In this document: piece by piece, positions 6,861 to 35,206 of the stretch
Layout: each line of letters opens with the position of its first letter
Position numbering within the stretch: the first letter of the stretch is position 1
Source: Candidatus Coprovivens sp.
Lineage (GTDB): Bacteria; Bacillota_I; Bacilli_A; RF39; UBA660
Assembly (NCBI GenBank): GCA_051892935.1
Contig: JBJFGS010000041.1
Span: 1-35,231, forward strand
DNA length: 35,231 nt
Direction: 5' to 3'
Program-made: the position numbers and the translations under genes
Notes under the pieces: generated by a model
Told to the model about the DNA's origin: nothing
The model's database searches: none
The model's input: the letters and a program-made list of their open reading frames with translations, nothing else

Positions 6861-6893
6861 AAAAAAAACTTATCGTTTTTGATAAGTTTTTTT
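6861..6893. terminator. Bidirectional intrinsic terminator between convergent nifJ and the 700-aa ORF
   Basis: AAAAAAAACTTATC-GTTTTT-GATAAGTTTTTTT inverted repeat with A/T tails on both sides. Confidence 0.8.
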
Positions 6894-8986
6894 TATGCAG
6901 CTCTTTCTTGATCTTGGTTAAGTTCTGGTTTGAGGATTTTTTGATGTTTTTTGGTTTTTAGACGATATTTTTCTAGTATTTTGTTTCTTTTCATAAGGTT
7001 GTTGTATTTTTTGTTTAAGTTAGTTTTTAATCTTGTTACTTGATTTATAAATTGGGGATCATAAGCTAGTTCTGGATATTTTCCTAATGCTCTTTGTTCT
7101 AAGTATTCTAGTTCTACTATGTTTTTATATGTTATGTCTAAAGCACTATTTAGAGCATCTTGGCCTTGTTTTATTTGTTCAAGGTCTGCAGGTTCATATC
7201 TATTATATTTTCTGTTAAAAAAGGCGTTTATGAAGTTGAAATGGTTATCTATTACTAATCCTATTGTAAAATAAAAGAAATATTTATTTCTTATGAATGG
7301 AAGAGCTAGTAAAGATGTCATTTCTAAAAGAATATTAGCTTTATTAAATCTTTTAAGCATTATTCTTTTATCTACATTTGCTACTTGTTCAGCTGTCATT
7401 CCTTCAAGTCTTTTCATTCTATCAAGAAGACTATTACTTACTTCTTGTTGATTTTCGTTATGTATTTTTAAAAGTTCATTTTGAAGTCCGTCGATTTCAG
7501 ATTGTTTGATTGTTTCATCTAATTGAATTTGTTCAGCATGAATATCATAACTTTTTTGTTGCTTAATTCTTTCTTTGGTATTACGTAATCTTTCTTCTTC
7601 TGCTTTCAATTTTTTCTTTTGTTTTTCAGATAATTTACCATCATATTTTAAGTATGTATTTGTTAAATCTTCTAACATTTTATCTATTTGTCTTTCAATA
7701 CGTTCATAATCTTTTTCAAAAAAGTCTTCTTTTTTTATTTCTTCTTGTGAATTACTTATTATTTGATTTGATACTTCGGTTAGAGATGATATTTCATGTT
7801 CTTTTTTTTCTTCAATTATTGCTTTTTGTTCTTCGTCTTTTTTTTGTTCTTGTTTTAGTTCTTCTATTTTTTTCTCTACTTTTTCTTTTAGTTCTTCTAG
7901 TTCTTTTTTATTTTTTTCTTCTATTATTTTTATTTCTTCTTCTAGCTTTTTTTCTGATATTCTTTCTAATTCTTTTTCTGGTTCTTCTTTTAATATTGTT
8001 GCTTTTTCTTCTAATGGCTCTTGTTTAGGAATTTCATTTGTTTGTTTTCTTTCTTTTTGTTCTAGTATTGGATTATCTTTTTTGTCCTCTTTTGGCGGTG
8101 TTATAATTTCAGAAATAACGGCTGTAGTTGTAACTGCTCCAATTATCGCAGCATCTTTTAAATTATCTTTTAATGTTGGTTTAGGTATTTCATCTATTAG
8201 GGGGACCATTATGGTACTAATTGTTTCTGTTTTTTCTTCTAGTTTTTCCTTTTTTTCGGTGGTAATTTTTTTAATAGCTTGTTTTTTATTTGCTTTTTGA
8301 GTTGATTTTTTGATATTAAGATCTTTTTTCTTAGGATGGGCAAGTGTATATATTTGTTTTTGTTTTTTTTCTTGTTCTTTCTTTTCAGTATTTCTTGGTG
8401 GAAATAGAGGATTTTTTATTAAATCATCTTTTAATTTTGTGACTACTTCTTCACGTATTATTTCATCTGTTCTTAATGTTTCATTTTCGACTCTTGTAAT
8501 AATTTCTGGAAAAATTCTTTCTTTTATTTGTTCTACTTTTATTAATTTGCTAGTAGGAGCTGTTTTTAATTTAAAACCTTCTATTTTATAAATTCGTTCT
8601 AATTCTTCTTTTATTATTAAATCAAGAAGTTCTTTTAATGGAAGATATTTTAACTCATTATCTTTGGTATATACTTTATACAATTTTTGATTTGGTATTT
8701 TTAGTATTTTGTTTGATTCATTAGTTGAATCAGATGTAGTGGTTTCTGTATTATGAGGATTAGCTTTAATGTTATCTTCATCTGGTAAAGATGTGTTATT
8801 ATTACCTATATTAATATTCTCTTTTTTTAATTGTTCTTTATTAGTATTTATTTTTTCTTCTTTTGTTATATTTATTCTAGGTTTACCAAATAACGATCTT
8901 ATTAGATTTATTATCATAATAAAGAATATTAAAATATATTTTTTTAATATAGATAATATTTTTTTTAATATTGATTGTTCTTCCAT
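6893..8986 (-). CDS. Hypothetical membrane-anchored Lys/Glu-rich coiled-coil protein
   Basis: Long ORF with N-terminal hydrophobic stretch (YILIFFIMIINLI), charged central coiled coil and a late hydrophobic segment. ATG8986 with AAGGTGA RBS. No family recognised. Confidence 0.75.
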   Translation of the reverse strand: MEEQSILKKILSILKKYILIFFIMIINLIRSLFGKPRINITKEEKINTNKEQLKKENINIGNNNTSLPDEDNIKANPHNTETTTSDSTNESNKILKIPNQKLYKVYTKDNELKYLPLKELLDLIIKEELERIYKIEGFKLKTAPTSKLIKVEQIKERIFPEIITRVENETLRTDEIIREEVVTKLKDDLIKNPLFPPRNTEKKEQEKKQKQIYTLAHPKKKDLNIKKSTQKANKKQAIKKITTEKKEKLEEKTETISTIMVPLIDEIPKPTLKDNLKDAAIIGAVTTTAVISEIITPPKEDKKDNPILEQKERKQTNEIPKQEPLEEKATILKEEPEKELERISEKKLEEEIKIIEEKNKKELEELKEKVEKKIEELKQEQKKDEEQKAIIEEKKEHEISSLTEVSNQIISNSQEEIKKEDFFEKDYERIERQIDKMLEDLTNTYLKYDGKLSEKQKKKLKAEEERLRNTKERIKQQKSYDIHAEQIQLDETIKQSEIDGLQNELLKIHNENQQEVSNSLLDRMKRLEGMTAEQVANVDKRIMLKRFNKANILLEMTSLLALPFIRNKYFFYFTIGLVIDNHFNFINAFFNRKYNRYEPADLEQIKQGQDALNSALDITYKNIVELEYLEQRALGKYPELAYDPQFINQVTRLKTNLNKKYNNLMKRNKILEKYRLKTKKHQKILKPELNQDQERAA

Positions 8987-9022
8987 AAGAATCACCTTTA
9001 TAATTTTATCATAAATTTATAG

Positions 9023-12336: not shown

Positions 12337-12520
12337 AGTTTGCTTTTTATTACATTATTAGTGAGTTTATTTTTTGGAAGGAACTTTAATAATTTTTAAA
12401 TTAGGAATATTTCTTTATGATGATGGGTAAGCTTTATTGAATAATTAACCTGGTTGACTTTTTATTAAAAATAGGTATAATTACCTAGTATGAAAGAAAG
12501 AGAGAGAAATTTAAAATTTT

Positions 12521-12931
12521 ATGGAAAAACAAACAAGTGACGAGTACTCGTCGAGAATAAGTAATTATGATAAGTTAGTATTAGGGGATCCAAATAAATT
12601 GGAAATTATTATTGCTGGCATGGGTAATTCTCAATTAATTGAGTTTTATGAATATTGTCAGGATAAGATTGAAGAAGATAATGATAAGAGTGATTTTTAT
12701 TGGTTTGCTTCATCAATTTTGGAAGAAACATCTGTTGTAAAAATGTATAGAAATGGTCAACTTTACGTTAGTGCTACATTAGGTAATTCTAATGAAACAA
12801 TGGGAGTTGAAGATGTTCTTACAGAAGAAGATATAAATCAGATAAATGAGATTATTTCTCTTATAAATCAAAGGAAAGAAGAAAGACATAATCCTATAAA
12901 GAAGTTTTTAAGAGTAATAAAAAGAAAATAG
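12521..12931 (+). CDS. Hypothetical protein (136 aa)
   Basis: ORF preceded by TTGACT-16-TATAAT (12454-12481) and followed by a terminator; no family recognised. Confidence 0.65.
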   Translation: MEKQTSDEYSSRISNYDKLVLGDPNKLEIIIAGMGNSQLIEFYEYCQDKIEEDNDKSDFYWFASSILEETSVVKMYRNGQLYVSATLGNSNETMGVEDVLTEEDINQINEIISLINQRKEERHNPIKKFLRVIKRK

Positions 12932-12937
12932 ATATGT

Positions 12938-12970
12938 AAACATTTTGATAGATTGTCAAAATGTTTTTTT
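12938..12970 (+). terminator. Intrinsic terminator
   Basis: AAACATTTTGA...TCAAAATGTTT stem followed by T-run. Confidence 0.7.
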
Positions 12971-12990
12971 ATAATTTTACAAAATCTTGA

Positions 12991-13019
12991 TTGACAAAAT
13001 TTTTGAAATAATATATCAT
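12991..13019 (+). promoter_or_regulatory. Sigma-A-type promoter for candidate sRNA 13025-13118
   Basis: TTGACA (12991-12996), 17-nt spacer, TATCAT (13014-13019). Confidence 0.7.
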
Positions 13020-13024
13020 TGAAT

Positions 13025-13118
13025 TAGCATGATAGATGTCATGCTAGATTGCTCTTACGATTGAAGTGAGAGTGAATCAACCAAAACCCCCTGAAGGAGC
13101 CGAAAGGCTCCATTTTTT
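13025..13118 (+). ncRNA. Candidate ~95-nt C-rich small RNA; integration target of the element
   Basis: Has its own promoter. Hairpin 1 TAGCATGA/TCATGCTA; hairpin 2 GATTGCTCTTAC/GTGAGAGTGAATC with G-U pairs on this strand; single-stranded AACCAAAACCCCCTGAA; terminator GGAGCC-GAAA-GGCTCC-ATTTTTT. No RBS-led ORF. Confidence 0.65.
13087..13117 (+). repeat. attL (left terminal direct repeat)
   Basis: CCCCCTGAAGGAGCCGAAAGGCTCCATTTTT; matches 29095-29126 with 3 mismatches and 1 indel. Confidence 0.75.
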
Positions 13119-13157
13119 GTTGAATTTATAGGGGTTTTTAATAAAAGTAGTAGAACG

Positions 13158-13190
13158 CTACCCATCATTTACCCATCAAATTGATGGTTT
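13158..13190 (+). repeat. Left integrase arm-type binding repeats
   Basis: TACCCATCA at 13159 and 13170 (11-bp period), followed by AATTGA and a partial inverted copy; same arrangement at 28968-28994. Confidence 0.8.
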
Positions 13191-13208
13191 ATATAAATTT
13201 AATATAGT

Positions 13209-14351
13209 TTATTCAGAAGACTTTTCGTTAAAGTCTTTTTCTAATGTGTCAAAGAATTTTGGAACATTTGCAAGATCTTTTTTGAACATATGAGTATAGG
13301 TTTCTAGTGTTTCAGTAGTTTCAGAATGACCTAAGAAATTAGATACAGCAGTTATTGGAGCTGCACCTGATATCAATGCTGATGCACATGAATGTCTAAA
13401 GTCGTGTAATCTAATTCTTCTTATTCCAGCTTTTTCAGCATACTTATCTCTATAGAAATACATTCTGCCAGTAGCCATAGGAACATCATCACCAAGTACA
13501 AACCAAGTTTGTTTAAATTTTGATAATCGTTCGTTAGTTTTCTTTAACTCAGCTAAATCATTTAATAGAGTAGTTGAAATTGGAATAGTTCTATTTGATG
13601 CTTCTGTTTTAGTGCTGGATATATACCATTCAGTACTAGCATTTGAATTAGATGGATTTAATACTTGTTGAGAAACAGTTAATATTTTATTAATGAAATC
13701 TATATGTTTCCATTGTAATCCTCTAGCTTCAGATCTTCTTAATCCACAGTAATATAATAATTCAAAGAAACATTTATATCTTAAATCATCAACTACTGAA
13801 ATAAATTTAAAAAATTCTTCAGGTTCATAGAAATCCATTTCTTTTTTTAAAGCACCTGGAGTTTTAAATGGTTCTAATTTATTATAGAATTTTCTTAAAT
13901 TAAAATCCCATTGTTTTTCAGCAAAGTTGATTACTTGCTTAATAAATTTTTGAATATCAGTTTTATATCTATCACAAAGGTTAGTTTTATTCATTTGTGC
14001 TCTCCATTTTTGATATAAATCCCAATTTAAATTTACTAATTCTACATTATCAAGTAAACCCATATATTTGATTCTATCTCTATAAGTTTTTAGAGTAGAG
14101 TCTTTTATTTTATCTTTTTGATAATCATAATAAATAGTATAGGCTTCTTTAAATGTCATATGAGGATTAACTTCAACATCTTTATATTTGTTTAAATATA
14201 TTTTTTCAGCTTGTATAGCTTCTTCTTCAGTCATATATGCTTGTGATTGATATTGATGTCTTTTACCATCTAAACCTTTACTATATTGTATAAATACCCA
14301 AGATCTTCCATCTTTTGTTATTTTATTTTCTTTAAGTTGTCTTACGGACAT
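13209..14351 (-). CDS. int: Tyrosine recombinase / integrase (phage/ICE type with N-terminal arm-binding domain)
   Basis: Catalytic residues in GLRRSE (R), TKT (K), LHDFRHS (HxxR), LGHS (H) and TYTH (Y). Start ATG14351 with GGAGGT RBS. Confidence 0.95.
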   Translation of the reverse strand: MSVRQLKENKITKDGRSWVFIQYSKGLDGKRHQYQSQAYMTEEEAIQAEKIYLNKYKDVEVNPHMTFKEAYTIYYDYQKDKIKDSTLKTYRDRIKYMGLLDNVELVNLNWDLYQKWRAQMNKTNLCDRYKTDIQKFIKQVINFAEKQWDFNLRKFYNKLEPFKTPGALKKEMDFYEPEEFFKFISVVDDLRYKCFFELLYYCGLRRSEARGLQWKHIDFINKILTVSQQVLNPSNSNASTEWYISSTKTEASNRTIPISTTLLNDLAELKKTNERLSKFKQTWFVLGDDVPMATGRMYFYRDKYAEKAGIRRIRLHDFRHSCASALISGAAPITAVSNFLGHSETTETLETYTHMFKKDLANVPKFFDTLEKDFNEKSSE

Positions 14352-14460
14352 TAATTTATTACCTCCTTTATTAATCCGTAAAATATCGACATACATCTAT
14401 ATTTTACCATTTATTTATAATTTTTAATAATCAATAGATTTTTTTATCATTTTTATCAAG

Positions 14461-14493
14461 AAAAAAGATAACTATTTCGTTAATAGTTATCTT
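14461..14493 (-). terminator. Intrinsic terminator of fic1
   Basis: AAGATAACTATT/AATAGTTATCTT stem with T-tract on the minus strand. Confidence 0.7.
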
Positions 14494-14523
14494 ACTTAAC
14501 TCTTGCTTAATACTTACTTAAAT
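14488..14523. repeat. 3 x 11-bp tandem repeat (CTTRCTTAAnn) downstream of fic1
   Basis: CTTACTTAACT CTTGCTTAATA CTTACTTAAAT; direct copy at 15576-15611. Confidence 0.85.
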
Positions 14524-15518
14524 TAATTTTTATAATACATTTGATTTTTACTTGTTGGTTTATCAGGAATAGTTAAACTAACTAAACCTTGTTTAATAGC
14601 AGGATCAAGATATTGTCCTCTTAAAGTTTCTTTAGATTTAATTCCTAATTTTTCCATTATTTCAGTTGCTGTCATTGGTTTACCAGATTCCATAACATCT
14701 AATAATTTGTTTATATTAATTGTTTCATTGGTAATTGGTAGGTGAGAAGTAGATATTGCTTCATCTAAAGTTTCATCTATCATTTTTAACATAAATTCAA
14801 TAAATACATTTGAGTTAGCATTTTTATGACACTTAGCTATTGAATCATAGTATTCATCTTGATATTTATGAATTTTAGATTCAATTGGTAAATATTCAAA
14901 AATATCTTTCCATTTATAAAGAATTGAATTTTGCCATAATCTAACTGTTCTACCATTACCATTTGTAAATGGATGAATAAATACAAATTCATAATGGAAT
15001 ATACTTGATAAAATTAAAGGATGAATTGTATCCTTATTTTCATTCAACCATTCAAATAAATCATTCATTAATGAATTGACTCTATCTCCTGGTGGACATA
15101 CAAATATACAATTTCCATTATCATCAAATACACCTTCTGAAGAAGTTCTAAATTCTCCAGATACTTCTTCAACTAAGAAAGTCATAACTCCATGAACTTT
15201 TTTTAAATCATCAATAGAGTATGGGTTAATATCTTTTAACATTTCATAAGCTTTATAAGCATTTTTAACTTCTTGAATGTCCTTTTGTTCACCAATAACT
15301 AATTTACCATTGATAACATCTTTTACTTGTTCTAAACTAAGTGGATTATTTTCAATAGCAACAGAAGAGTGAACTGAATTGATTTTAGTTTGTTTTCTTA
15401 AATATGGTGTTTTATCTAAATTAGTAAAAGAATCCAATTTACCGATTTTTTCCATAATATCAGAAACTTTTTTTAACATTTCATTTGATATCTCAAATGG
15501 TGGAATATATTTATCCAT
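14523..15518 (-). CDS. Fic-domain protein (class II, autoinhibited) with C-terminal winged HTH
   Basis: Fic motif HPFTNGNGRTVR, N-terminal inhibitory SVAIENN, C-terminal wHTH ending TIPDKPTSKNQMY. Start ATG15518 with GAGGTG RBS. Confidence 0.92.
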   Translation of the reverse strand: MDKYIPPFEISNEMLKKVSDIMEKIGKLDSFTNLDKTPYLRKQTKINSVHSSVAIENNPLSLEQVKDVINGKLVIGEQKDIQEVKNAYKAYEMLKDINPYSIDDLKKVHGVMTFLVEEVSGEFRTSSEGVFDDNGNCIFVCPPGDRVNSLMNDLFEWLNENKDTIHPLILSSIFHYEFVFIHPFTNGNGRTVRLWQNSILYKWKDIFEYLPIESKIHKYQDEYYDSIAKCHKNANSNVFIEFMLKMIDETLDEAISTSHLPITNETININKLLDVMESGKPMTATEIMEKLGIKSKETLRGQYLDPAIKQGLVSLTIPDKPTSKNQMYYKN

Positions 15519-15575
15519 TAAAATCACCTCATTTTGTTATTTATATTATACCATTTTATTGGAAAATATACAATA

Positions 15576-15611
15576 TATCTTACTTAAATCTTGCTTAAAT
15601 TCTACTTAAAG
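15576..15611. repeat. 3 x 11-bp tandem repeat upstream of the fic1 promoter
   Basis: CTTACTTAAAT CTTGCTTAAAT TCTACTTAAAG, immediately upstream of minus-strand TTGTAT-17-TATAAT (15573-15545). Confidence 0.85.
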
Positions 15612-17054
15612 TTCATAATCATCAGATTTATCTTTTTCATATTTTTTATTTATTTTTTTACTTAAACTTTTAAATGAGTATGAATCATATTCTTGATTTT
15701 TATCTACATCAAAACCTAAAGTTCTTTTTAATGCTTTATACAAATCTATAGCTACATTTTTAACACTGTTTATTATTGTATCGATATTTTCTTTTAATTC
15801 AGTTAATTCATTTCTTAATGAACTAATTATTGTATTTTGAAAATTAATAGTTTCATCTTTTTCTTTTATAATTAGTTTTTGATTTTCAATTATTTTATCT
15901 TTTTCTTTTATAGTTTTACCTGATTTAAGTTTTTTTATTTCGGTATTTAGTTTATCAATTTGTTTTTGTTTAGATTCTAATTTTATTTCATTTTGTTCAA
16001 TTATTTTATCTTTATTTAAATTATCTTTAGTTATTTGTTTGGAATAGTTGGAAAGGTTAGTAATATCTTTCTCTTTATATCCTATTATTTTGCCTTTTTC
16101 TGGATTTAGAAGAGGATTTGTATCTACATCAGATATTTTATCCATATACTTTAATTCAGTGTTGTTTAAAGCTTTATTTTTGATTAATTCGATTTCTAAT
16201 AATTTATTTTGCTCTTGTAAATCTTTTAATTGCTTTTCTGCTTTGGTTAAATGATGTTTATTAGCACCAACTTCACCTCTATCAAGATTAAAACCTTTTT
16301 CGTTAATAAATTTGTTATAGTCATCCTGAATTTTTGCATAAGATGTTTTAAATCCTTTTTCTTTCCAAAATTGATCAGAATTAAGAAAATTACCATATTC
16401 AATTTCATATACATTTTTACCGTTTTCATCTTTCTTTTGAATAGGAATCATTTTTTCTATACCATCTTTTGTTATATATGGTTTTAATATTTGATGACCA
16501 TCTTTATCAGTTTCAAAAACTTTTCTTTTAACTTCATGAACTACTGGAGTAAAGTAGAAATGCATATGAGGAGTATTTTCATCAAAATGAATAGCAGAGT
16601 AGATAACATTCTCTTTACCAACTAAATTACACATAAATTCATTTGAACAATTAAAATATTCTAAAACTTTTTCTGGAATATCTTCTTTTGATTTTATTAA
16701 TGCTTTTTGAATTGGTTCACCTTTATGTTTTCCTTCAGTATGAAATTCACCAGTATCTTCAAATTTCATTCCTAATGATTTGAAAAATTCTTGACCACTT
16801 GTTATTACACAACCATTTAATAAATTTATCTTTTTATTATTTTTATTAAATTCTATATTATTCTTATATAAATTTTTATATGTTGAACTAGCTAAATCTG
16901 AACTACATAATGGAACAAATTCTATATTGTATTTAGTTCTTTCTTTATCATAATTACCTGTACCAATTCTATTAGTAAGTTCTTTACTAAGTCCTCCGAT
17001 GTCTGATGATTTAATCTTATTTGTAATGGTCAATACTTGATATCCATCAAACAT
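15606..17054 (-). CDS. MobV/Pre family relaxase (plasmid recombination enzyme)
   Basis: D.ERT.YN motif, VITSGQEFF, HUH motif HFDENTPHMH, LDRGE and C-terminal coiled coil. Confidence 0.85.
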   Translation of the reverse strand: MFDGYQVLTITNKIKSSDIGGLSKELTNRIGTGNYDKERTKYNIEFVPLCSSDLASSTYKNLYKNNIEFNKNNKKINLLNGCVITSGQEFFKSLGMKFEDTGEFHTEGKHKGEPIQKALIKSKEDIPEKVLEYFNCSNEFMCNLVGKENVIYSAIHFDENTPHMHFYFTPVVHEVKRKVFETDKDGHQILKPYITKDGIEKMIPIQKKDENGKNVYEIEYGNFLNSDQFWKEKGFKTSYAKIQDDYNKFINEKGFNLDRGEVGANKHHLTKAEKQLKDLQEQNKLLEIELIKNKALNNTELKYMDKISDVDTNPLLNPEKGKIIGYKEKDITNLSNYSKQITKDNLNKDKIIEQNEIKLESKQKQIDKLNTEIKKLKSGKTIKEKDKIIENQKLIIKEKDETINFQNTIISSLRNELTELKENIDTIINSVKNVAIDLYKALKRTLGFDVDKNQEYDSYSFKSLSKKINKKYEKDKSDDYEL

Positions 17055-17077
17055 ATTTATAATCCTTTCATAAATTT

Positions 17078-17320
17078 TGTGACATTATGACGTTAATGAG
17101 TTGGGTATCATCGTGAGGATGGTCATTTTATGACCTATCTCACTAGGGCATAGCCCGATGTGAGTTAAGGGAATCCCTTAAAATCCCATTCTTGTTTAAG
17201 CAAAGACTTAAGATTAACTTAAGCCTAAGCAATAAACAAGAGATTATTTATTTCATCAATAAATAATCAGAAGATGATTCATTATCGCCACTTTCATTTC
17301 TTCGAAACAAAACGTGCCCC
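17078..17320. other. Hairpin-dense intergenic region upstream of the relaxase (candidate oriT / single-strand origin)
   Basis: Nested inverted repeats: GTGAG..GGTCAT/ATGACC..CTCAC, GGGC/GCCC, TTAAGGG/CCCTTAA, TCTTGTTTA/TAAACAAGA, GATTATTTA/TAAATAATC. MobV oriTs typically lie directly upstream of mob. Confidence 0.5.
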
Positions 17321-17321
17321 A

Positions 17322-18287
17322 TTATTCATCTTCATCTTGCGAAGGTTCTATAAATGTAGCATGATATGTTCTACTATCAGCAGTTCTACATTTAGTAATG
17401 TGAACACCTTCGCTTTCTAAAAGTTCGATACTATTATTTAGTAGTCTACCGAATCTCTTAGGTGACATCGGTATATTAGCTTTTAATACAATATCAGTAC
17501 AAGTGAAATCTACATCTTTTTGACTAGCAACATATTTAATAAATGATGTCATTTCATATGACAGTTCATCTTCTTCAATAGAATTAATTTTTTTAAATAT
17601 AAGATTGTCTAATTTCTTTAATTGAATATCTAGTTCTGGAAAATCTCTATTAATTGTTTGTAATTTAACATATTTTTTATTAGCTTTATTTTCAATTAAA
17701 GTTATTCTTCCATCAACTGTTGCATCAAGTGCAATACTTCCTAAAGTTTTACCTGTTTTATTTAAATGATGTGTAACTAAAAAAGTTACATTGTATTTAT
17801 CACAATAAGTTCTTAATTTTGGAAATACTTGTTGAGCAATATCTTGATAGTTATTAATATCGTATTGGACTCCAAAATCAATATCCTTTAACATATCTAA
17901 TATTATAAGTTTACCATTATAATCTTCAGCAAAAGTTTTTATATCATATTCTAAATCTCGTAATGATATATTTGATTTATTTTGTCTATCTATTATAAAT
18001 AAAGAGTCTTTTTTTGCCGAAAGTTCTAGGAACTCTAAACGTTCCTTCAATTGACCTTCATCAGATTCTGTGGTAACATATAAGACAGGTGAGGGATTTA
18101 CTTTGTGTCCTAAAAATGGTGTTCCGTTAATAACGGAGCAGGAAAGTTGCAGTGCCAACATAGACTTTCCTACTTTTGGATTAGATACTAAGAGATACAC
18201 ACCTTTAGACTTCATTATGTTGTTTATGATGATGTCTTTTTTTATGCTTGTATCTACTTGTTCAATTGGTTTAAGCAAGTTTAACAT
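17322..18287 (-). CDS. AAA_25 / RepA-like (RecA-fold) ATPase, putative replicative helicase of the element
   Basis: Walker A SNPKVGKS, VLYVTTE, Walker B LIILD, VTHHLNK and LGS motifs; possible C-terminal wHTH. Confidence 0.75.
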   Translation of the reverse strand: MLNLLKPIEQVDTSIKKDIIINNIMKSKGVYLLVSNPKVGKSMLALQLSCSVINGTPFLGHKVNPSPVLYVTTESDEGQLKERLEFLELSAKKDSLFIIDRQNKSNISLRDLEYDIKTFAEDYNGKLIILDMLKDIDFGVQYDINNYQDIAQQVFPKLRTYCDKYNVTFLVTHHLNKTGKTLGSIALDATVDGRITLIENKANKKYVKLQTINRDFPELDIQLKKLDNLIFKKINSIEEDELSYEMTSFIKYVASQKDVDFTCTDIVLKANIPMSPKRFGRLLNNSIELLESEGVHITKCRTADSRTYHATFIEPSQDEDE

Positions 18288-18525
18288 CTCCCTTCATATT
18301 TTTGCTTCTAGATTCTAAATAATCAATATCTATATTTAAATACTTTACGACTTCTTGCATTGGTACAGCGTTCTTTGGAACATAATATCCTTTGCTTTCT
18401 AAGTCGTTTTTAATTTTACTTTTAATAGCTAGTGCTGAATTTCTTCCTATATTTGCTAGTTTCATTAAATCTGATAAATTGCACCATTGTTGTGCAATTA
18501 ATTTTAAAGTTTCATCTACGGTCAT
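18271..18525 (-). CDS. Small DNA-binding protein, putative excisionase (Xis-like)
   Basis: 84 aa; HTH-like WCNLSDLMKLANIGRNSA; GGAGGTG RBS; lies in the repressed leftward operon. Confidence 0.55.
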   Translation of the reverse strand: MTVDETLKLIAQQWCNLSDLMKLANIGRNSALAIKSKIKNDLESKGYYVPKNAVPMQEVVKYLNIDIDYLESRSKNMKGDVKLA

Positions 18526-18537
18526 ATTACACCTCCT

Positions 18538-18861
18538 TTATCTTTCTAATTCTTTTAATTTTTTATGTTCTAAATCAACTAAATTCTTAAATTCATCAGT
18601 TGGTTGTACTGAAACATGAAGACCAAGATATGAATCTTTATCTACACATTCTTCTAAATTATAAAAATGTGCATAATCATATTTTTCTAATTCTTTAGAA
18701 CTATTAATAGTTTCTTCTCTAGTATTTTTGTCTATTAATAATCTTCTAAGTGATTTAGTTAAGTCATAACAGATTAAACAATATAATCCTTTAGCACTTA
18801 ATGATAAATCTGGATTATCTAAAACATCTTTTCTTACTAAAGTGAAATATTTTTGATCCAT
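18538..18861 (-). CDS. Small protein with replication-initiator-like N-terminal HTH
   Basis: FTLV...VL.NPDLSLSAKGLYCLI resembles the N-terminus of phage/ICE replisome-organiser HTH proteins; strong AAGGAGGT RBS. Confidence 0.6.
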   Translation of the reverse strand: MDQKYFTLVRKDVLDNPDLSLSAKGLYCLICYDLTKSLRRLLIDKNTREETINSSKELEKYDYAHFYNLEECVDKDSYLGLHVSVQPTDEFKNLVDLEHKKLKELER

Positions 18862-19020
18862 TTTTAATACCTCCTTTACTTACTTCAAAAGGGTAGAGTT
18901 CTCCCTGGGTAATTGTCCTTTGTGAAATTTTAGTTATTTCATAACTCCCGTGCCAATAGGGTTATTTCTGCCTTGCATTTTTTTACTTAATGGCATAACG
19001 GCGATTTCCACTAAGACTAA

Positions 19021-19033
19021 ATTTTCAAAGAAC
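19021..19033 (-). promoter_or_regulatory. boxA-like antitermination sequence in the leftward operon leader
   Basis: Minus strand reads GTTCTTTGAAAAT, resembling the Bacillota rrn boxA, ~40 nt downstream of the predicted transcription start. Confidence 0.5.
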
Positions 19034-19054
19034 AAATTTAACTAAATATATCAC

Positions 19055-19130
19055 GTCCGATATATCAGTCAATTAAATAATAACACTGTCCGGAAAACTT
19101 GTCAATACTTTTTTGTCCGAAAATATAGAC
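19055..19130. promoter_or_regulatory. Divergent control region: leftward promoter with three putative repressor operators
   Basis: Minus-strand TTGACA(19105-19100)-17-TATTAT(19082-19077). 16-bp boxes GTCCGATATATCAGTC (19055), GTCCGGAAAACTTGTC (19088) and GTCCGAAAATATAGAC (19115). Confidence 0.7.
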
Positions 19131-19194
19131 AAATTAAATTTTAAATGATAAAATGGATTTATAAAGGAATAATTAGGAAGAAAGTAGGGATGAT

Positions 19195-19713
19195 ATGAAT
19201 TCTGAAAAACTACAAAATTTAATATTAACTGCGATAGAAAAAAAGAAAATTTCTCAAAGAGAACTTGCAAAATTAACTGGAATAAGTAGAAGTACATTAA
19301 ACGATATACTTAATGGTAAAATAAAAAAGATCAAATTAGATGATCTTTATCAAATTTCAATTCCATTAGAATTAAATTTAGAAAATTTACTTGAAGCTTG
19401 TGGTTTTAATAGTGTTTTAAAATCATTAAGTACAGATAGATATGCAGGAATGTCGGATAGACAATTAAAAGAAAAATTGGATGAATATCAACAATCTGAA
19501 TTAAGTTTGTTAGATTGGGATGCACAAAAGAGAAAAAAATCTAATGAAGTAGGTAAAAGACTTTTTGATATTCAAAATAAAATCGAAATGTCTGAACAAT
19601 TAAATAAGAATTATACTAAAAAAGAAATAGCTGAAGATATAAAAGAAGTAATTGAAGAATTGAAACCATTACAACAAAAATATGATTATTCTCAATTACC
19701 AAGAAATAAGTAG
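19195..19713 (+). CDS. XRE/Cro-CI family HTH transcriptional repressor
   Basis: ISQRELAKLTGISRSTLNDILNG HTH; divergent from the xis/rep/mob operon. Confidence 0.9.
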   Translation: MNSEKLQNLILTAIEKKKISQRELAKLTGISRSTLNDILNGKIKKIKLDDLYQISIPLELNLENLLEACGFNSVLKSLSTDRYAGMSDRQLKEKLDEYQQSELSLLDWDAQKRKKSNEVGKRLFDIQNKIEMSEQLNKNYTKKEIAEDIKEVIEELKPLQQKYDYSQLPRNK

Positions 19714-19724
19714 GAGGTAAAATA

Positions 19725-24057: not shown

Positions 24058-24124
24058 TAAAATTTCAGAATAGTTGTGTGATGATAGAATTTTTAAGAAA
24101 ATATAAAAAAATGTATATGGTTTT

Positions 24125-24173
24125 AAAGTGCAATATTTTTAATTTCAAAGTGCAATTTTTGCACTTTGAAATT
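24125..24173. repeat. Operator-like site upstream of fic2: half-site plus palindrome
   Basis: AAAGTGCAAT at 24125, then 22 bp later AAAGTGCAA-TTT-TTGCACTTT (perfect 15-bp arms 24141-24173); abuts TTGTTT-17-TATACT promoter (24172-24200). Confidence 0.85.
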
Positions 24174-24222
24174 GTTTTTTTTATTAAAATGTGGTATACT
24201 ATTAACAGTTAGGAGCTTTGAT

Positions 24223-25281
24223 ATGAATAAAAAAGAAAAATGGAATTTAGAATTATCAAAATATATAATACAAGGAGAACCTAGTCGTGTTGAAAAAACA
24301 AAAACTTGGGGAACTGCAATTGGATTACAAGAAGTAGATGGGTTAAAACCTTCTGAATATTTAATTGAAACTGCAAAAGAACATATTGAAGGCAATATAG
24401 ATTTAAAAGAAGTTGAAAATAGAATAAATAACTATTATAAAGTATTAGATAATAGAAAAGCAGAAGAAGTAGAGAATAGTGAAGAAGCAGATAAAGTGGC
24501 TGTTAGAATTACAGAATTACTTTCTGAAAAATCATTTAATTTTAATCCAACTGAGTTAATAAATATTCATAAAAGATTATTTTCAGGAGTATATAAACAC
24601 GCAGGTAAAATAAGAGAATATAATTTTTCAAAAGAAGAATGGATTTTAAATGATGATACTGTTGTTTATGCTCCATATGAAACAATATTACCAGCCTTAC
24701 AATATGATTTTGAAAAAGAAAAAGAATTTTCTTATAAAGACTTATCATTAGAGGATTCAATAAAACATTTATGTCGTTTTACATCAGATATCTGGCAAGT
24801 TCATCCATTCTGTGAAGGCAATACAAGAACAACAGCAGTATTTATTATTAAATATTTAAGAACATTTGGATTTGATATAAATGATGATGTTTTTGCAGAA
24901 CATTCATGGTATTTTAGAAATTCATTAGTTAGAGCTAATTACAAAAATTTTGAAAAAAATATTTTTGAGGATATATCATTTCTAGAAAAATTCTTTTATA
25001 ATTTATTAGCAAATGCTAATTTTGAGTTAAGAAATAGATTTACTCATATTGATTATGAACAAAGTGCAATCCAAGAAATTTTAAAGTGCAATGATTGCAC
25101 TTTAGAAGAACAAGCAATAATAAATGTAATTAAGGTTAATCCTAGTATTAAACAAGAAGAAATAGCTAAAGTGATTAATAAATCTTTAAGAACAGTTAAA
25201 ACAAGAATGATTGAAATGCAAGAAAAAGGTCTTATTGCTAGAAAAAATGGAAAGCGTAATGGTGAATGGGTAATTTTATAA
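24223..25281 (+). CDS. Fic-domain protein with N-terminal VbhA-like antitoxin domain and C-terminal HTH
   Basis: TAIGLQEVDGLKPSEYL VbhA-like N-terminus, Fic motif HPFCEGNTRTT, C-terminal wHTH (PSIKQEEIAKVINKSLRTVK...GEW). ATG24223 with AGGAG RBS. Confidence 0.9.
   Translation: MNKKEKWNLELSKYIIQGEPSRVEKTKTWGTAIGLQEVDGLKPSEYLIETAKEHIEGNIDLKEVENRINNYYKVLDNRKAEEVENSEEADKVAVRITELLSEKSFNFNPTELINIHKRLFSGVYKHAGKIREYNFSKEEWILNDDTVVYAPYETILPALQYDFEKEKEFSYKDLSLEDSIKHLCRFTSDIWQVHPFCEGNTRTTAVFIIKYLRTFGFDINDDVFAEHSWYFRNSLVRANYKNFEKNIFEDISFLEKFFYNLLANANFELRNRFTHIDYEQSAIQEILKCNDCTLEEQAIINVIKVNPSIKQEEIAKVINKSLRTVKTRMIEMQEKGLIARKNGKRNGEWVIL
25061..25104. repeat. Intragenic copy of the fic2 upstream site
   Basis: AAAGTGCAAT at 25061, then 22 bp later AAAGTGCAA-TGA-TTGCACTTT; lies in the Fic/HTH linker. 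Confidence 0.85.
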
Positions 25282-25296
25282 AAATGAGGTGTTAAA

Positions 25297-25959
25297 ATGA
25301 ATGACAATATAGTAGGTAAAATTTACATATTAACAAATCCATCTTTCCCAGATTATGTTAAGATTGGATATTCAAAGAATGTTGAAAATAGATTAAATCA
25401 ATTAAATAATTCTGAAGCAGTTCCTTTTGCCTTTAGATTATATGCTACTTATGATGTAGAAACACAATCTGCAGATAAAGTTTTACATAAAATAATAGAT
25501 AAATTAAATGCTGATTTAAGAAGTATAGATACAGTTAATAATAAATTAAGAGTAAGAGAATTTTATTTGATATCTCCAGAAGATGCTTATGAATTATTAG
25601 AAGATATTGCTATTATTAGTGGTACTAAAGAAAGACTTCATTTATATAAACCAACTAAGGAAGAAGTTATTGAAGAAGAAACTGCAGAAAAGAATAGAGA
25701 ATTAGCTAAGAATAGGCATCATTTTAAAGATATTAGATTTAAATCTAGTTTAACCAATAAAAATTATTATTCTAGAACAAAAGATGATGGAACTTTAGGA
25801 ATATATGAAGAAGATACAAATGAAGAAGTTTCTAATAATAGTAATCCATCAAAGAAACAAATTTTATTACAAGCTGTTAAAGATTTAAATGTAGAAGTAG
25901 AGAGTAATATTACTTTATATCAATTACAACATAGATTAGAAAAATTGATTAATAAATAA
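25297..25959 (+). CDS. GIY-YIG nuclease family protein (T5orf172-type domain)
   Basis: GKIYILTNPSFPDYVKIGY...RL.QLN...PF.F...REFY pattern; GAGGTG RBS. Confidence 0.85.
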   Translation: MNDNIVGKIYILTNPSFPDYVKIGYSKNVENRLNQLNNSEAVPFAFRLYATYDVETQSADKVLHKIIDKLNADLRSIDTVNNKLRVREFYLISPEDAYELLEDIAIISGTKERLHLYKPTKEEVIEEETAEKNRELAKNRHHFKDIRFKSSLTNKNYYSRTKDDGTLGIYEEDTNEEVSNNSNPSKKQILLQAVKDLNVEVESNITLYQLQHRLEKLINK

Positions 25960-26022
25960 TCATATATAGATATAATGTCATAACGTCATTGTATATAATG
26001 ATATATTTGTAGGAGGATTTAT

Positions 26023-28662
26023 ATGGATGATGAACAAATAGAAAATAATAACTTAATAAATGAAGAAATGAAAGAAAATAATTATTCAGATTATTTTAAA
26101 TGTGATTTACATATTCATACTAATTATTCAAGTAAAACCAAAACAAATGATTATAAAGGTGATTTTGAACTAAAAGAATTAATAAACAAAATTTCTGAAC
26201 CACAATATGATATAAAATTATTGTCTTTTACAGACCATAATATTATAAATGTACCAGCATATGAAGAATATTATAATGATAAATCCCTAAATATAGAAGA
26301 TAGATGTCTTTTAGTTGGAATTGAATTAGATATCATAGTTGAGGCTTTTTTATTAGAAAAGTTGAAAGCAAATCTTGAACATACAGAATGTGATAAGAAA
26401 AAATATCATTCACTAATAATATTTAAGAGTAATAATGCAAAAAAATTAAATGATACTCTTAACAAAATGTATAAGAATATATCTGATGAATATAATGAAA
26501 AAAATAATACTAATATTGATTTGAATGATGAAAATAAAGATTTAAAATCTAGAATAACATCTTTTGACAGATTTGCAGAATATTTTATTGATGAAGATTA
26601 TATTGTAATATCTCATGGAAAAAAAGAAGCAAATATAGTTGAAGCATATAAATCCTATAATAATGGTTTAACTGAAGCACAAGTAATGGTATTAATGGGT
26701 ATTATCAATGCTGTAGAAATGTCACCAGGCAATAATGCAAAAGTTATTAATCATTTTAATAATGGATTTCAAGCTTTGCTAAGTGAAGATTTCTCTGCAA
26801 AAAAAGAAGTGCCATATGTTGTGTTCTCTGATAATCATCAAATAAGTTGTTATCCAAAGCATGATAGTGCACAAAATTTAGAAAAAGAAATATTTACTTG
26901 GATTAAAGGAGATTTATCATTTGAAACACTAAGAATGGCATTTGTAGATCCTACAAGTAGAATTTTAGTTTCATCAGATAAACCAAATTTACCAGAAAAG
27001 TATATTGAAGAAATTAAGTTTAATACTATTAAAGATGGAATTGAAAAAGTACAAATAGTTAAATTATCGCCAGGGATAAATACGATTGTTGGTGGTAGAT
27101 CGTCAGGTAAAAGTTTATTATTTAATTCTATACTTTATTCATTATCTTCAGGAAAAGATAAAAGTAAGATTGATGATTATGTAAAGGAATCAAATAAAGT
27201 ATTAAAATTAGAAACTATTCAAAGTAAATTAAACTGTGAAGAAGAGTTCAAAGATAATAATATTTGTGAAATTAATGCTTTTACGCAGGAAGAAATAATT
27301 GAATTATTTGAAAATAATGGAGAAGGATTAAAAGAACATTTAGATTTTCATAAATTAGATGCTATTGAAATCAATGAAAAAATTAGTGCTTACAATTTAG
27401 CAATTGATCGTTTTACGAGTGCCTATTCAGATTTATTAAATAAGAAAAATGACAATAATAGCAGTCTTCCAATAACAACTTTCAAAGAGGCCTCTAAAAC
27501 ATTAACTGAAAAATATGAATATAAATCTGCAATAGAAACAATTAAAAATAATATTGATTTATCTTCTACTGAAATTGATAATGTAATAAAAAAAGTAAAT
27601 ACTGAAATTCAAAATGCTATAATAATTAAAGAATTGAAACTTAAGGAAGAACTATTATTTAATTTAGATGAATTAGAGATTATAGATAATTACATAAATA
27701 TTTTAAAAAATAAATCTGAAGAATTAAAAAAATCATATAATAAAACATATGTAAAAGAAAAATATCTAAGCAATCTAGAATCGTCATTAAATGAAATATC
27801 TAATAAATACCTTACAAGTGAAACCGAAAAAATATCTTACGCAAAAGAAAATGTTAAAAATGAATTGAGTAAAATGTATAATTATTTTAAAACAAAATTA
27901 TTTTTTAAAAAGTATGCAACTGATTTGGAGAATTTAAACATTAAAATTGATGAAAAAAATAATCAGATTTCAGATAGTTATACATTAAATACAAAAGTTG
28001 ATTGTGAAATAAATAAAGAATTTTTATATAACATTATTTCTGAAAAGATTCGTGATTTAGATAAGGAAAAATCCATTGAAAATAATTTTATTGATTTAAT
28101 GAATGATGATATAAAAATATTTAGAAAAGATAATTCTTATGAAAATGTAGTAGGATTATTTTCTCTAGTAAAAAATTCTATAAATGAATCTTTAACGCCA
28201 AAATATACAATTATTGAAAATGATAATGATATTTCTTTAAATTCAGATAATATGTCTCAAGGAAAGAAAGCTTCTATATACTTAGAGATAATATTGGAAA
28301 AATGTAAAAGTAATAATTCTATAATAATGATAGATCAACCAGAAGATAATATTGATAATGAATTTATTACAGATGTTATGATAGATAAAATAAGGGATTT
28401 AAGAATGAAAAATCAAGTTATTCTTGTAACGCATAATGCAGCAATTGCAATTAATAGTGATTCTGAGAATATTATTATTTCAGAAAATAAAGATGGGATT
28501 TTTAAGTACGACGTAGGCGGATTGGAATTAGAAAAACATCGAAAAAAAATCTGTAAATTACTTGATGGTGGTAACTATATTTTTGATAATAGATATCACA
28601 AGTATAATATTATCAATACTAAAGTATGTGAGCCGATAAGAAAGGGAGAAATAAATGAATAA
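26023..28662 (+). CDS. PHP-domain phosphoesterase fused to SMC/ABC-type ATPase (Ppl/TrlF-like defence protein)
   Basis: PHP metal ligands DLHIHT, TDHN, GIE and SDNH, plus TWIKGDLSFETLR. Walker A GGRSSGKS, coiled coil, signature MSQG, Walker B/D-loop IDQPEDNIDN, H-loop VTHNA. Confidence 0.88.
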   Translation: MDDEQIENNNLINEEMKENNYSDYFKCDLHIHTNYSSKTKTNDYKGDFELKELINKISEPQYDIKLLSFTDHNIINVPAYEEYYNDKSLNIEDRCLLVGIELDIIVEAFLLEKLKANLEHTECDKKKYHSLIIFKSNNAKKLNDTLNKMYKNISDEYNEKNNTNIDLNDENKDLKSRITSFDRFAEYFIDEDYIVISHGKKEANIVEAYKSYNNGLTEAQVMVLMGIINAVEMSPGNNAKVINHFNNGFQALLSEDFSAKKEVPYVVFSDNHQISCYPKHDSAQNLEKEIFTWIKGDLSFETLRMAFVDPTSRILVSSDKPNLPEKYIEEIKFNTIKDGIEKVQIVKLSPGINTIVGGRSSGKSLLFNSILYSLSSGKDKSKIDDYVKESNKVLKLETIQSKLNCEEEFKDNNICEINAFTQEEIIELFENNGEGLKEHLDFHKLDAIEINEKISAYNLAIDRFTSAYSDLLNKKNDNNSSLPITTFKEASKTLTEKYEYKSAIETIKNNIDLSSTEIDNVIKKVNTEIQNAIIIKELKLKEELLFNLDELEIIDNYINILKNKSEELKKSYNKTYVKEKYLSNLESSLNEISNKYLTSETEKISYAKENVKNELSKMYNYFKTKLFFKKYATDLENLNIKIDEKNNQISDSYTLNTKVDCEINKEFLYNIISEKIRDLDKEKSIENNFIDLMNDDIKIFRKDNSYENVVGLFSLVKNSINESLTPKYTIIENDNDISLNSDNMSQGKKASIYLEIILEKCKSNNSIIMIDQPEDNIDNEFITDVMIDKIRDLRMKNQVILVTHNAAIAINSDSENIIISENKDGIFKYDVGGLELEKHRKKICKLLDGGNYIFDNRYHKYNIINTKVCEPIRKGEINE

Positions 28663-28945
28663 TAATATGGTTTTAAAAACCGAAGATGGAAAAATAATTA
28701 GCATAGAGTTTAATAATAAAAAATATGAGTATTCAACTGATTCTTTATCAATAGACACTAGTTCATTAATTAAAGATTTAGCGGATAGTGAATTAGTTGA
28801 AGAAATAGAAATAGATGATCAATCAATTATTGATTATCAGGTAGATAATGAAGTGACAGCAGAATTCAATGAATTACATAAATTCTTAAAAAATATTCCT
28901 AAAGCATATAATAAAGCGGTAAATGAAATGTTAAGTTTGGAATAA
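28655..28945 (+). CDS. Small acidic hypothetical protein translationally coupled to the PHP-ATPase
   Basis: ATGAATAA start/stop overlap, AAGGGAG RBS, 96 aa. Confidence 0.75.
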   Translation: MNNNMVLKTEDGKIISIEFNNKKYEYSTDSLSIDTSSLIKDLADSELVEEIEIDDQSIIDYQVDNEVTAEFNELHKFLKNIPKAYNKAVNEMLSLE

Positions 28946-28967
28946 TTAAAATAGCTGATAAGTATTT

Positions 28968-28994
28968 CTACCCATCAGCTACCCATCAAATTGA
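28968..28994 (+). repeat. Right integrase arm-type binding repeats
   Basis: CTACCCATCAGCTACCCATCAAATTGA; 25/27 identical to 13158-13184. Confidence 0.8.
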
Positions 28995-29094
28995 ACTAAA
29001 TTTATCAATTTTTAGTTAAATTTTATTAAACTCTATATGAGTTGTATGTCGGTATTACAGGGCTTTTCAACAAGCCTCTTTTTTGATGTAATAG

Positions 29095-29126
29095 CCCCCT
29101 GAAAGATCTGAAAGGGCTCCATTTTT
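29095..29126 (+). repeat. attR (right terminal direct repeat; degenerate sRNA 3' end)
   Basis: CCCCCTGAAAGATCTGAAAGGGCTCCATTTTT. Confidence 0.75.
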
Positions 29127-29190
29127 ATGTCTTTATGTATGTTATATATGTTATAATCTTTATAGTATATAATAAATAGTTGGTGGTAAC

Positions 29191-35120: not shown

Positions 35121-35206
35121 TATCTTATAAAGAGTGATGGAGGGACTAGCCCTTAGAAGTCACACCAACCTATTAAATTAGGTGGTAAAGCTAGAACGAT
35201 AAGATA
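35121..35206 (+). ncRNA. SAM-I (S-box) riboswitch aptamer
   Basis: P1 ATCTTAT/ATAAGAT, AAGAG..GGAGGGACTAGCCC..GAAG kink-turn P2, CAACC...GGTG P3, pseudoknot CTAG/CTAG; TGATATAAT extended -10 just upstream. The regulated gene lies beyond the window. Confidence 0.9.

Follow-up and report, generated by a model that had tools for sequence, protein, structure and literature searches.

The 35,231 nt of contig JBJFGS010000041.1 from the Candidatus Coprovivens sp. assembly GCA_051892935.1 (order RF39, family UBA660), referred to here as the window, contain at 12991-13118 a short unit that is very probably a chromosomal, independently transcribed small RNA (sRNA) gene, here termed sRNA-1, which is found across the order and which mobile elements use as a landing site. 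The 10-mer in which its invariant single strand ends, CCCCCUGAAG, would serve as the core of the chromosomal attachment site (attB) for elements carrying one subfamily of tyrosine integrases, and one such element appears to account for the 16.0 kb of inserted DNA (13097-29103) that follow. The attachment site of the element (attP) would have the same core followed by a terminator hairpin and U run of its own. As the attP core would precede the terminator of the element, integration would leave the host-derived RNA body and C-rich motif in place and give the left junction (attL) a terminator supplied by the element, with the native terminator pushed to the far end (attR), where it would decay. 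Across the order the site would be a hotspot at which elements and their remnants pile up.

The unit is complete and of about 100 nt, with a promoter, two hairpins, a C-rich single strand and a terminator. The sigma-70-type promoter (12991..13019, + strand; TTGACA at 12991, a spacer of 17 nt and TATCAT ending at 13019) scores 11 out of 12, and the gene follows at 13020..13118 (+), its 5' end being placed from the position of the promoter. When 13018-13118 is folded, hairpin 1 takes up 13025-13046 and hairpin 2 takes up 13047-13078, the invariant stretch AACCAAAACCCCCUGAAG (13079-13095) is left unpaired, and the terminator GGAGCC-GAAA-GGCTCC (13096-13111) is followed by a U run at 13113-13118, all on the + strand. 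The fold has an energy of -36.8 kcal/mol (z = -6.9) and none of 200 shuffled sequences folded as well. The first-pass annotation of this DNA had described a full promoter-hairpin-hairpin-C-tract-terminator unit, and the promoter score, the fold and the shuffles bear this out. From its sequence, sRNA-1 is presumably transcribed.

The RNA could be aligned from 17 genomes of the same genus, and nine of the 26 predicted pairs have compensatory changes on both sides, which fall in hairpin 1, in hairpin 2 and above all in the terminator. Within this alignment CAACCAAAACCCCCUGAAG is invariant and AUCAACCAAAACCCCCUGAAG is without variation. The covariance model R1 matches the window over its full length at 13020-13119 with 114.4 bits. 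Directly before the R1 match, TTGAC-N15-19-TANNNT is present in 60 of the 68 loci from other species that have enough upstream sequence, and in nearly all loci sRNA-1 has both an intrinsic terminator and a promoter of its own.

With one genome taken per genus, 150 other genera of the family were searched with R1 and 113 have a match, a single one in every genome except G160. Counted by genome, it is matched in 120 of 149 genomes of the family and in the single genome of the second family of the order. Among 136 genomes representing 25 further families of the class there is no match, with one genome that could not be scored. A further sample was drawn from metagenome-assembled genomes (MAGs), with 80 named loci fetched from at least 120 stretches that carry an exact 18-mer in GTDB species genomes; 77 of the 80 match R1. 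These loci are labelled as uncultured Bacilli, Tenericutes, Mycoplasma or Erysipelotrichaceae MAGs from animal and human guts, and also as 'Clostridium sp. CAG:302'. A few bear other labels (Muribaculaceae, proteobacteria), and because most of these still match R1 the odd labels are probably binning errors; two loci with no R1 match (L131 and L151) look like chance matches to the 18-mer. The genes upstream of sRNA-1 are syntenic in three related genomes (G004, G006 and G003). The proposal that this is a conserved, structured RNA gene of the host is borne out by the covariation, by the matches across genera and by the conserved promoter.

It is apparent that sRNA-1 is not one of the RNAs at which such elements are usually found. 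ARAGORN detects no tRNA or transfer-messenger RNA (tmRNA) gene in the whole window, and the RNA of the signal recognition particle (SRP), the tmRNA and a 6S-like RNA are located on other contigs of the genome (C27, C24 and C25 respectively), therefore the unit is none of them, as the first-pass annotation had held for tRNA, tmRNA and SRP RNA. Its suggestion of an Infernal search of Rfam led to the same point, as at gathering scores Rfam 15 finds nothing at sRNA-1 and, in the whole window, only a S-adenosylmethionine (SAM) riboswitch at 35122-35205. When 12900-13250 is searched at E <= 10 no family comes near its gathering score, the best on the + strand being ES205 with 14.9 against 86 bits, and RsaE (RF01820) gives no match at all. 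The claim that the RNA belongs to an undescribed class holds in part: the family is new, having no match in Rfam, whilst the class is not, as sRNA-1 is built like the C-rich-box sRNAs of Firmicutes described in PMC2790875.

The two ends of the insert share a short repeat. The attL core, CCCCCTGAAG (13087..13096, +), lies at the 3' end of the invariant single strand of sRNA-1 and is the crossover region, and the attR core, CCCCCTGAA (29095..29103, +), was located by a pattern match. CCCCCTGAA occurs in the window at 13087 and 29095, two copies against 0.03 expected, with none of 100 shuffles reaching two, and it is found three times in the whole 1.81-Mb genome. This repeat came from reading and pattern search, and is not among the top 20 AT-rich repeat families of 12500-30000. 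Taken further, the alignment of 13087-13118 with 29095-29127 has 33 columns, of which 28 are identical, four are substitutions and one is an indel. The duplication of ~31 nt at a distance of 16 kb that had been reported earlier is therefore real, though imperfect: the functional repeat is the core of 9-10 nt and the rest would be the displaced native terminator. The left terminator, apparently supplied by the element (13097..13118, +), folds at -12.7 kcal/mol. What appears to be the displaced native terminator on the right (29104..29127, +) has decayed, reaching -4.2 kcal/mol, with 147 of 200 shuffles folding as well, and it can no longer form a hairpin.

Just inside both ends lies a further repeat that the first-pass annotation had not noted, CTACCCATCAnnTACCCATCAAATTGA, a tandem of the 9-mer TACCCATCA (two matches against 0 expected), so that arm-type direct repeats of two TACCCATCA copies occupy 13158..13184 in the left arm and 28968..28994 in the right arm, both on the + strand. 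These tandem 9-mers are presumably arm sites of the integrase, and analogous tandem repeats are present in other elements. A fifth copy of TACCCATCA lies outside the element, at 12421-12429 (-), about 600 nt upstream of sRNA-1, and may be due to chance. A separate conserved motif, TTTAYARGGGTTT, is found at 13126-13142 and at the left ends of many elements, 10-25 nt past the terminator that the element supplies. It repeats, imperfectly and in inverted orientation, the AAACCC..T.A that lies about 45 bp away in the core region, and might serve the integrase as an additional site or mark where the int transcript ends. The third CCCCCTGAAG of the genome (G000) is on contig C12 at ~1359-1400 (L203), where a good terminator (GAGACGC..GCGTCTC) comes after it and no sRNA body before it. 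It stands just past an ORF (open reading frame) of 241 aa on a contig that also has a C5 methylase, ClpP, a RecA-like protein and a serine recombinase, and could be where another element has its right end, or a strain variant. A further att copy was considered on contig C10 and rejected, the likeness there being only a similar GGAGCC-GAAA-GGCTC terminator.

No empty site came to light in this species, so the argument as to where the crossover happens rests on comparison. The integrase gene of the window is on the opposite strand to sRNA-1, the two genes pointing their 3' ends at each other across a gap of 90 nt. The integrases of G022 and G014 (41-42% identity) face sRNA-1 in the same way. Of the genus and family loci, 28 have 1190 nt or more of downstream sequence, and in seven of these an integrase 41-49% identical to that of the window is found in this position; 42 of the 63 ORFs listed for them were scanned, short overlapping ones being dropped. 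A hidden Markov model made from the integrase of the window and six homologues has a match in 14 of the 80 named loci, all downstream of the RNA and on the opposite strand, seven of them within 200 nt of the core, and none upstream. It had been proposed at first pass that the insertion sites of homologous integrases be mapped, and this count of 14 loci 3' of the RNA against none 5' of it is the outcome.

Second cores are found 1.2-9.7 kb downstream in six loci (L086, L116, L117, L145, L153 and L155), and the right ends of related elements read ..AATAG|CCCCC. In L086 and L145 attL and attR have only CCCCCTGAAG in common, with unrelated terminators, and the terminators at attL and attR differ also in L155 and in the window. 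The flanks of the core are uncoupled from one another. When 45 nt on each side were compared among 118 distinct loci (6903 pairs), 51 pairs had at least 90% identity 3' of the core and at most 70% 5' of it, 28 had the reverse, being alike 5' of the core and unlike 3' of it, and only two were alike on both sides. Close relatives give the same picture, as L101, L113 and L094 have near-identical RNA bodies and diverge right past the core, which is followed by 149 nt to the end of recG in L101, by 0.96 kb with a SocA-like gene in L113 and by at least 4.8 kb with an integrase fragment in L094. The orientation of sRNA-1 relative to recG is convergent in L101 and co-directional in L094 and the window, a flip that could reflect an inversion between oppositely oriented cores. 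The ends of MAG contigs are also clustered, lying at most 210 nt 3' of the core in 23 of the 80 loci and at most 5 nt in six, against only four that end within 300 nt on the 5' side, which is the effect that strain-variable insertions would have on an assembly.

The nearest relative, G004, has sRNA-1 and then 1.76 kb between perfect repeats of 67 bp that start at TGAAGG. In this locus (contig C15, 770-2598; L038) the 67-bp repeat consists of the sRNA terminator and a further 39 nt, and the segment has a single SLFN/AlbA_2-HATPase_c_4 gene and no integrase; past the second repeat comes an orthologue (87% identity) of the right-flank gene of the window at 29191-30852. The segment looks like a cis-mobilizable remnant. 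It has tandem repeats of the GTCCGG type at its left end, and past the second repeat there are a further 190 nt with ACGGCATTT twice. The geometry of the integrases, the second cores, the uncoupled flanks, the close relatives, the contig ends and G004 together support a crossover inside CCCCCUGAAG, with the terminator downstream of it apparently brought in by the element; the recombination itself would be catalysed by the integrase of the window. This fits the junction of ~13095 to ~29104 that the first-pass annotation had predicted, which falls at CCCCCTGAA(G), and the comparison of many genomes upholds its view that elements with tyrosine integrases use the RNA gene as attB and rebuild its 3' end.

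The site appears to be in wide use. A survey took the first three ORFs 3' of sRNA-1, 145 in all, from the 52 named loci whose downstream sequence reaches 1500 nt or more, and in 27 of these loci integrase, defence, toxin-antitoxin, restriction-modification (R-M) or insertion sequence (IS) genes are found directly 3' of the RNA. The integrase is adjacent in seven, and in six it is 2.7-6.3 kb away, behind AbiE, Fic, KAP, nSTAND3, OLD-like or NERD genes. A further 14 begin with an IS110 transposase, AbiEi/AbiEii, Fic, HamA with a helicase, a SocA-like gene, DpnII or HinP1I R-M genes, or a set of AAA_21, RloB and SAVED. The figure of 27 is a floor, because L116, L117 and L145 are repeat-flanked segments without named families. 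Loci from the genus and family add YhcG nucleases, a reverse transcriptase, a PvuRts1I-like enzyme, ApeA-HEPN, an EcoRI methylase and Abi_2.

The enzymes that target sRNA-1 are a branch of ordinary tRNA-targeting integrases, since distant paralogues within the genus (28-33% identity) are found in the same geometry beside tRNA-Ala, tRNA-Cys and tRNA-Pro in three of the eight loci checked. Relatives on viral contigs mostly lack the core, with none nearby in 45 of 47, and no tRNA was found near the 14 that were checked for one. One of the 47, L231, contains the sRNA and attL. The record of L230 (L276, L278) was first read as an attP; that reading was dropped, as the whole record has two cores 34.9 kb apart and is an integrated provirus. 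It is a 35.1-kb IMG/VR provirus flanked by the 14-bp repeat CCCCCTGAAGAGAG, with TTAGATACGA twice in both arms, and is either a tandem array or an integration at a secondary site.

A number of observations weigh against this account of sRNA-1 as an order-wide host gene and attachment site. R1 is without a match in 37 of the 150 genera, many genomes being incomplete and stricter filters having been applied. The attR copy is exact over the 9 nt of CCCCCTGAA only and imperfect beyond, and in the other 25 of the 52 surveyed loci the first three ORFs are housekeeping or unknown genes, none of them recognisable as a mobile or defence gene. In the L230 provirus the left, integrase-side flank differs from the sRNA body, so the core can also be used, or at least occur, where there is no intact sRNA gene. 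A bare site was not seen in any close relative, G004 being occupied and the contig of G006 stopping at the RNA; contig C36 of G006 was tried as a source of attR and set aside, as its synteny differs and there is no attR there. No joint of ~13.1 to ~29.1 kb, as expected of an empty site or a circle, is present among the contigs on 12400-29400 from four public runs (rat, pig and chicken gut DNA and one gut metatranscriptome), which cover mainly the backbone at 13.2-19.7 kb and say nothing either way. Over the bin 12967-13533, which includes sRNA-1, the contigs of the RNA run have a depth of 0.31, in what is a single gut metatranscriptome represented by contigs only.

Other explanations have to be set against these data. 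The conserved unit could be a cis-acting leader, or a site on the DNA at which a protein binds, serving its neighbours rather than being a free-standing sRNA, and the invariant stretches could equally be protein-binding DNA. The promoter and intrinsic terminator that the unit has in nearly all loci speak against this, the compensatory changes in both hairpins and the terminator argue for RNA structure, and the downstream genes vary among genomes, so there is no constant gene for it to regulate in cis; we regard this explanation as improbable. It is more doubtful still that the RNA belongs to the mobile elements themselves, for example as a regulatory RNA carried at their left end. Such an origin would suit the fact that sRNA-1 is very often beside element DNA and that its terminator is derived from the element. 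It does not suit a gene that is essentially single copy in each genome, whose sequence 5' of the core is uncoupled from that 3' of it and whose upstream genes are syntenic in three relatives. In addition integrases are never upstream, the copy in L101 is only 149 nt from recG, and in ~61 genomes sRNA-1 shares a contig with a second sRNA gene, sRNA-2, mostly at a distance of 2.2-2.9 kb and with recG between the two.

It might also be argued that the copies of the 3' segment are a chance likeness between terminators and that the island arrived without site-specific recombination at the RNA, given that only 9 nt are exact and that terminators similar to GGAGCC-GAAA-GGCTC are found elsewhere (C10). 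The shuffles and the three occurrences of the 9-mer in the entire genome make such a coincidence hard to accept, the matched arm repeats lie inside both ends where none is expected, and the same core bounds elements in other genomes, all of which makes chance the most remote of the explanations considered. A chromosomal sRNA gene whose 10-mer is an attB core remains the reading that we favour.

The element itself has genes for integration and possibly for transfer in its left half. The tyrosine integrase (395 aa; 13209..14396, -) matches PF00589 at 3.4e-27, with 95.7 bits against a cut-off of 27.1, and R220, H331, R334, H357 and Y367, which make up the catalytic R..H-x-x-R..H..Y, are invariant in 12 homologues. 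It is followed by a SoFic-like protein of the Fic/Doc family (14523..15527, -), a MobV/Mob_Pre relaxase (15606..17054, -; PF01076 with 51.3 bits against 25.5, and NF041497 MobV with 83.5, which is below the cut-off of 100) and an AAA_25 ATPase of the RepA/DnaB-like type (17322..18287, -), a gene that follows the integrase in L086, L108 and L138 too. Three small ORFs of 84, 107 and 74 aa (18271..19297, -) have no family match, and a Cro/CI-type helix-turn-helix (HTH) regulator (19195..19713, +) comes next.

The right half is largely given over to putative defence genes. A type III R-M system has its Mod subunit at 19725-21410 (+; MTase_III 6e-153) and its Res subunit at 21379-24057 (+; REase_III 8.5e-123), and is followed by a Fic-HTH protein (PADLOC PDC-S72) and a T5orf172 protein (PDC-S57) at 24166..25959 (+), and by an 879-aa TrlF/Ppl-like AAA ATPase with a 96-aa ORF at 26023..28945 (+), for which all scores are below the curated cut-offs. 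There are thus four defence candidates besides the type III R-M system, the SoFic-, PDC-S72-, PDC-S57- and Ppl/TrlF-like proteins. Among the 14 ORFs no type IV secretion system or coupling-protein family was detected, and as an integrase and a relaxase are present, integrative mobilizable element is on gene content the best name for the insert, its cargo being defence genes. The backbone from the integrase to the HTH gene (13200-19700) is present at 90-99% identity on contigs of gut metagenomes (rat, pig and chicken) and of one gut RNA library, which carry little of the cargo half (19800-29000), therefore backbone and cargo appear to be exchanged as modules. The SAM-I riboswitch already mentioned (62.4 bits, 35122-35205, +) lies at the right edge of the window.

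What sRNA-1 does in the host can be proposed only tentatively. The most likely function, though one we hold at somewhat less than even chances, is that it acts in trans, its unpaired C-rich box pairing with G-rich ribosome-binding sites in the manner of RsaE/RoxS; the first-pass annotation had likewise suggested that CCCCCU could pair with Shine-Dalgarno sequences. In this genome GGGGG serves as a Shine-Dalgarno-like motif: of its 185 positions, 75 precede the start of an ORF (50 aa or more) by 3-15 nt, and by the same measure GGAGG is so placed at 324 of 928, random positions at 1239 of 20000 and CCCCC at two of 185. As GGGGG so often stands before ORF starts, the CCCCCU seed has a plausible set of targets. 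Against this proposal, no outlier target emerged when the seed was compared with all 1251 GGGG-containing windows of the genome, the best duplexes reaching -21.6 to -21.1 kcal/mol against -17 to -19 for the bulk. Seed matches of 8 nt in tRNA-Ala and tRNA-Val were judged to be chance. A repeated unit on contig C31 of the same genome (L279), present in three copies (55463-55671, 57379-57629 and 65892-66091), encodes a hydrophobic peptide of 21 aa that resembles a type I toxin and has its own terminator, and its 3' end carries CUUUCAGGGG, which is complementary to the seed of sRNA-1. It was rejected as a conserved target, as the CUUUCAGGGG part is not conserved and the family matches cover only ~165-250 of the query; a DNA search of other genera for the part with the 21-aa ORF found nothing.

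A second conserved sRNA lies nearby. sRNA-2 is a C-rich gene on the - strand of the window, with a promoter at 9159-9131 and a transcript of ~9125-9022, between the ORF at 6893-8995 and recG. It was found by means of copies of CCCCTGAA that lie 2.3-3.5 kb upstream of sRNA-1 in nine of 52 loci, it is on the strand opposite to sRNA-1, and it consists of two hairpins, an invariant CAACCCCUUUUUAUUCUUUU and a terminator, the stem of which covaries while its loop keeps UCAGGGGG. A model of it, R2, places sRNA-2 in 136 of 150 genera; AACCCCTTTTTATTC...TCAGGGGG is exact in 87 of the 150 and in G000, with no control matches. It too is without a Rfam family, RsaE giving 16.2 bits against a cut-off of 79.

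The loop motif UCAGGGGG and CCCCCUGA of sRNA-1 are exactly complementary, and in about a quarter of the loops the match extends to 10 nt. It is conceivable, though unlikely, that sRNA-1 mainly pairs with sRNA-2, one RNA acting as a sponge or gate of the other instead of, or besides, binding mRNAs. The wide occurrence of sRNA-2 and of the exact motif pair, the covarying stems around a loop that is kept, and the linkage of the two genes around recG would all agree with this. Then again sRNA-2 was discovered through the motif, so that the complementarity is partly a selection effect, and the G run of the loop may be partly paired within sRNA-2 itself: in the minimum-energy fold of the copy in the window UCU pairs with GGG and leaves a loop of CAGG only, and RNAalifold pairs the G run with sRNA-2's own CCCC. 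A broader scheme, to which we would give similarly little weight, is that the sibling C-rich sRNAs flanking recG form an order-wide module in which sRNA-1 represses ~70 mRNAs with GGGGG ribosome-binding sites and is gated by CCCCCUGA:UCAGGGGG pairing. In this scheme mobile elements would have evolved to insert precisely at the 10-mer under the strongest constraint. The swapping of terminators by elements might then alter the stability or dose of a global regulator of the host, such that the gain of a defence island would rewire the control of translation.

The integration of islands and prophages at the 3' ends of tRNA and tmRNA genes by tyrosine integrases is well established. As here, the integrase gene stands beside the RNA gene and converges with it, both ends carry a direct repeat of the RNA's 3' segment, the 3' end of the gene is restored, and tandem accretion and remnants occur. 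Unlike there, the target is an RNA of another kind than tRNA or tmRNA, the core is placed in an unpaired motif of regulatory type before the terminator rather than in an anticodon or T stem-loop, and the part replaced is the terminator, the sequence of which varies freely between elements. Similarly, streptococcal integrative and conjugative elements are accompanied by integrative mobilizable elements and by cis-mobilizable remnants (CIMEs), with accretion at one att site. Here too there is an integrase and a relaxase without conjugation machinery, there are tandem arrays, and att-flanked segments without an integrase, resembling CIMEs, are seen in G004, L117, L145 and L155; some caution is required, as one relaxase match is below the NCBIfam cut-off and mobilisation is predicted from the genes alone.

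Integration at sRNA genes also has precedents. As far as the text of Bobay et al. 2013 (PMC3603311) used here goes, which cites Wassarman 2001 and Balbontin 2008, sRNA loci of enterobacteria serve as phage attachment sites, ryeB/SdsR in Salmonella and ryeE/CyaR in E. coli, and 11 and 4 further integration sites lie at most 1 kb from conserved sRNA genes. Those sites share with the present one the use of sRNA genes as integration targets and hotspots; they differ from it in phylum, RNA and integrases, and in the present case one 10-nt core is used across >100 genera in an RNA that was previously unknown. The relevant section of Geissmann et al. 2009 (PMC2790875) describes C-rich-box sRNAs of Firmicutes (RsaE/RoxS, other Rsa RNAs and the loops of RNAIII) that bind Shine-Dalgarno regions, and which share the layout of sRNA-1, with a hairpin at the 5' end, a C-rich motif that is unpaired and lies where conservation is highest, and a classical terminator. 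Unlike them sRNA-1 has no match in sequence or structure to the RsaE family of Rfam, and its motif is CCCCCU against UCCC. Since phage integration at ryeB and ryeE is documented and tRNA and tmRNA islands are textbook cases, the mechanism is not new; both integration into sRNA genes and C-rich-box sRNAs are already known. What is new is the sRNA-1 family with its sibling sRNA-2, the lineage in which they occur, the position of the core at the boundary of seed and terminator, the free swapping of terminators and the order-wide use of one 10-mer as a landing pad for defence islands.

A literature search on the lineage name RF39 returned no paper containing that name, and to our knowledge no regulatory RNAs have been described in this order. 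Two conserved sRNA families outside Rfam 15 are thus added to a large order of uncultured gut Bacilli, and the case illustrates how functional non-coding genes can be discovered from integration sites. The landing pad CCCCCTGAAG is precise and order-wide, helps to find new defence systems and explains breaks in MAG contigs, and it is possibly a site for genetic tools if members of the order are cultured. The replacement of the terminator by incoming elements offers a testable route by which mobile DNA may alter a regulator of its host.

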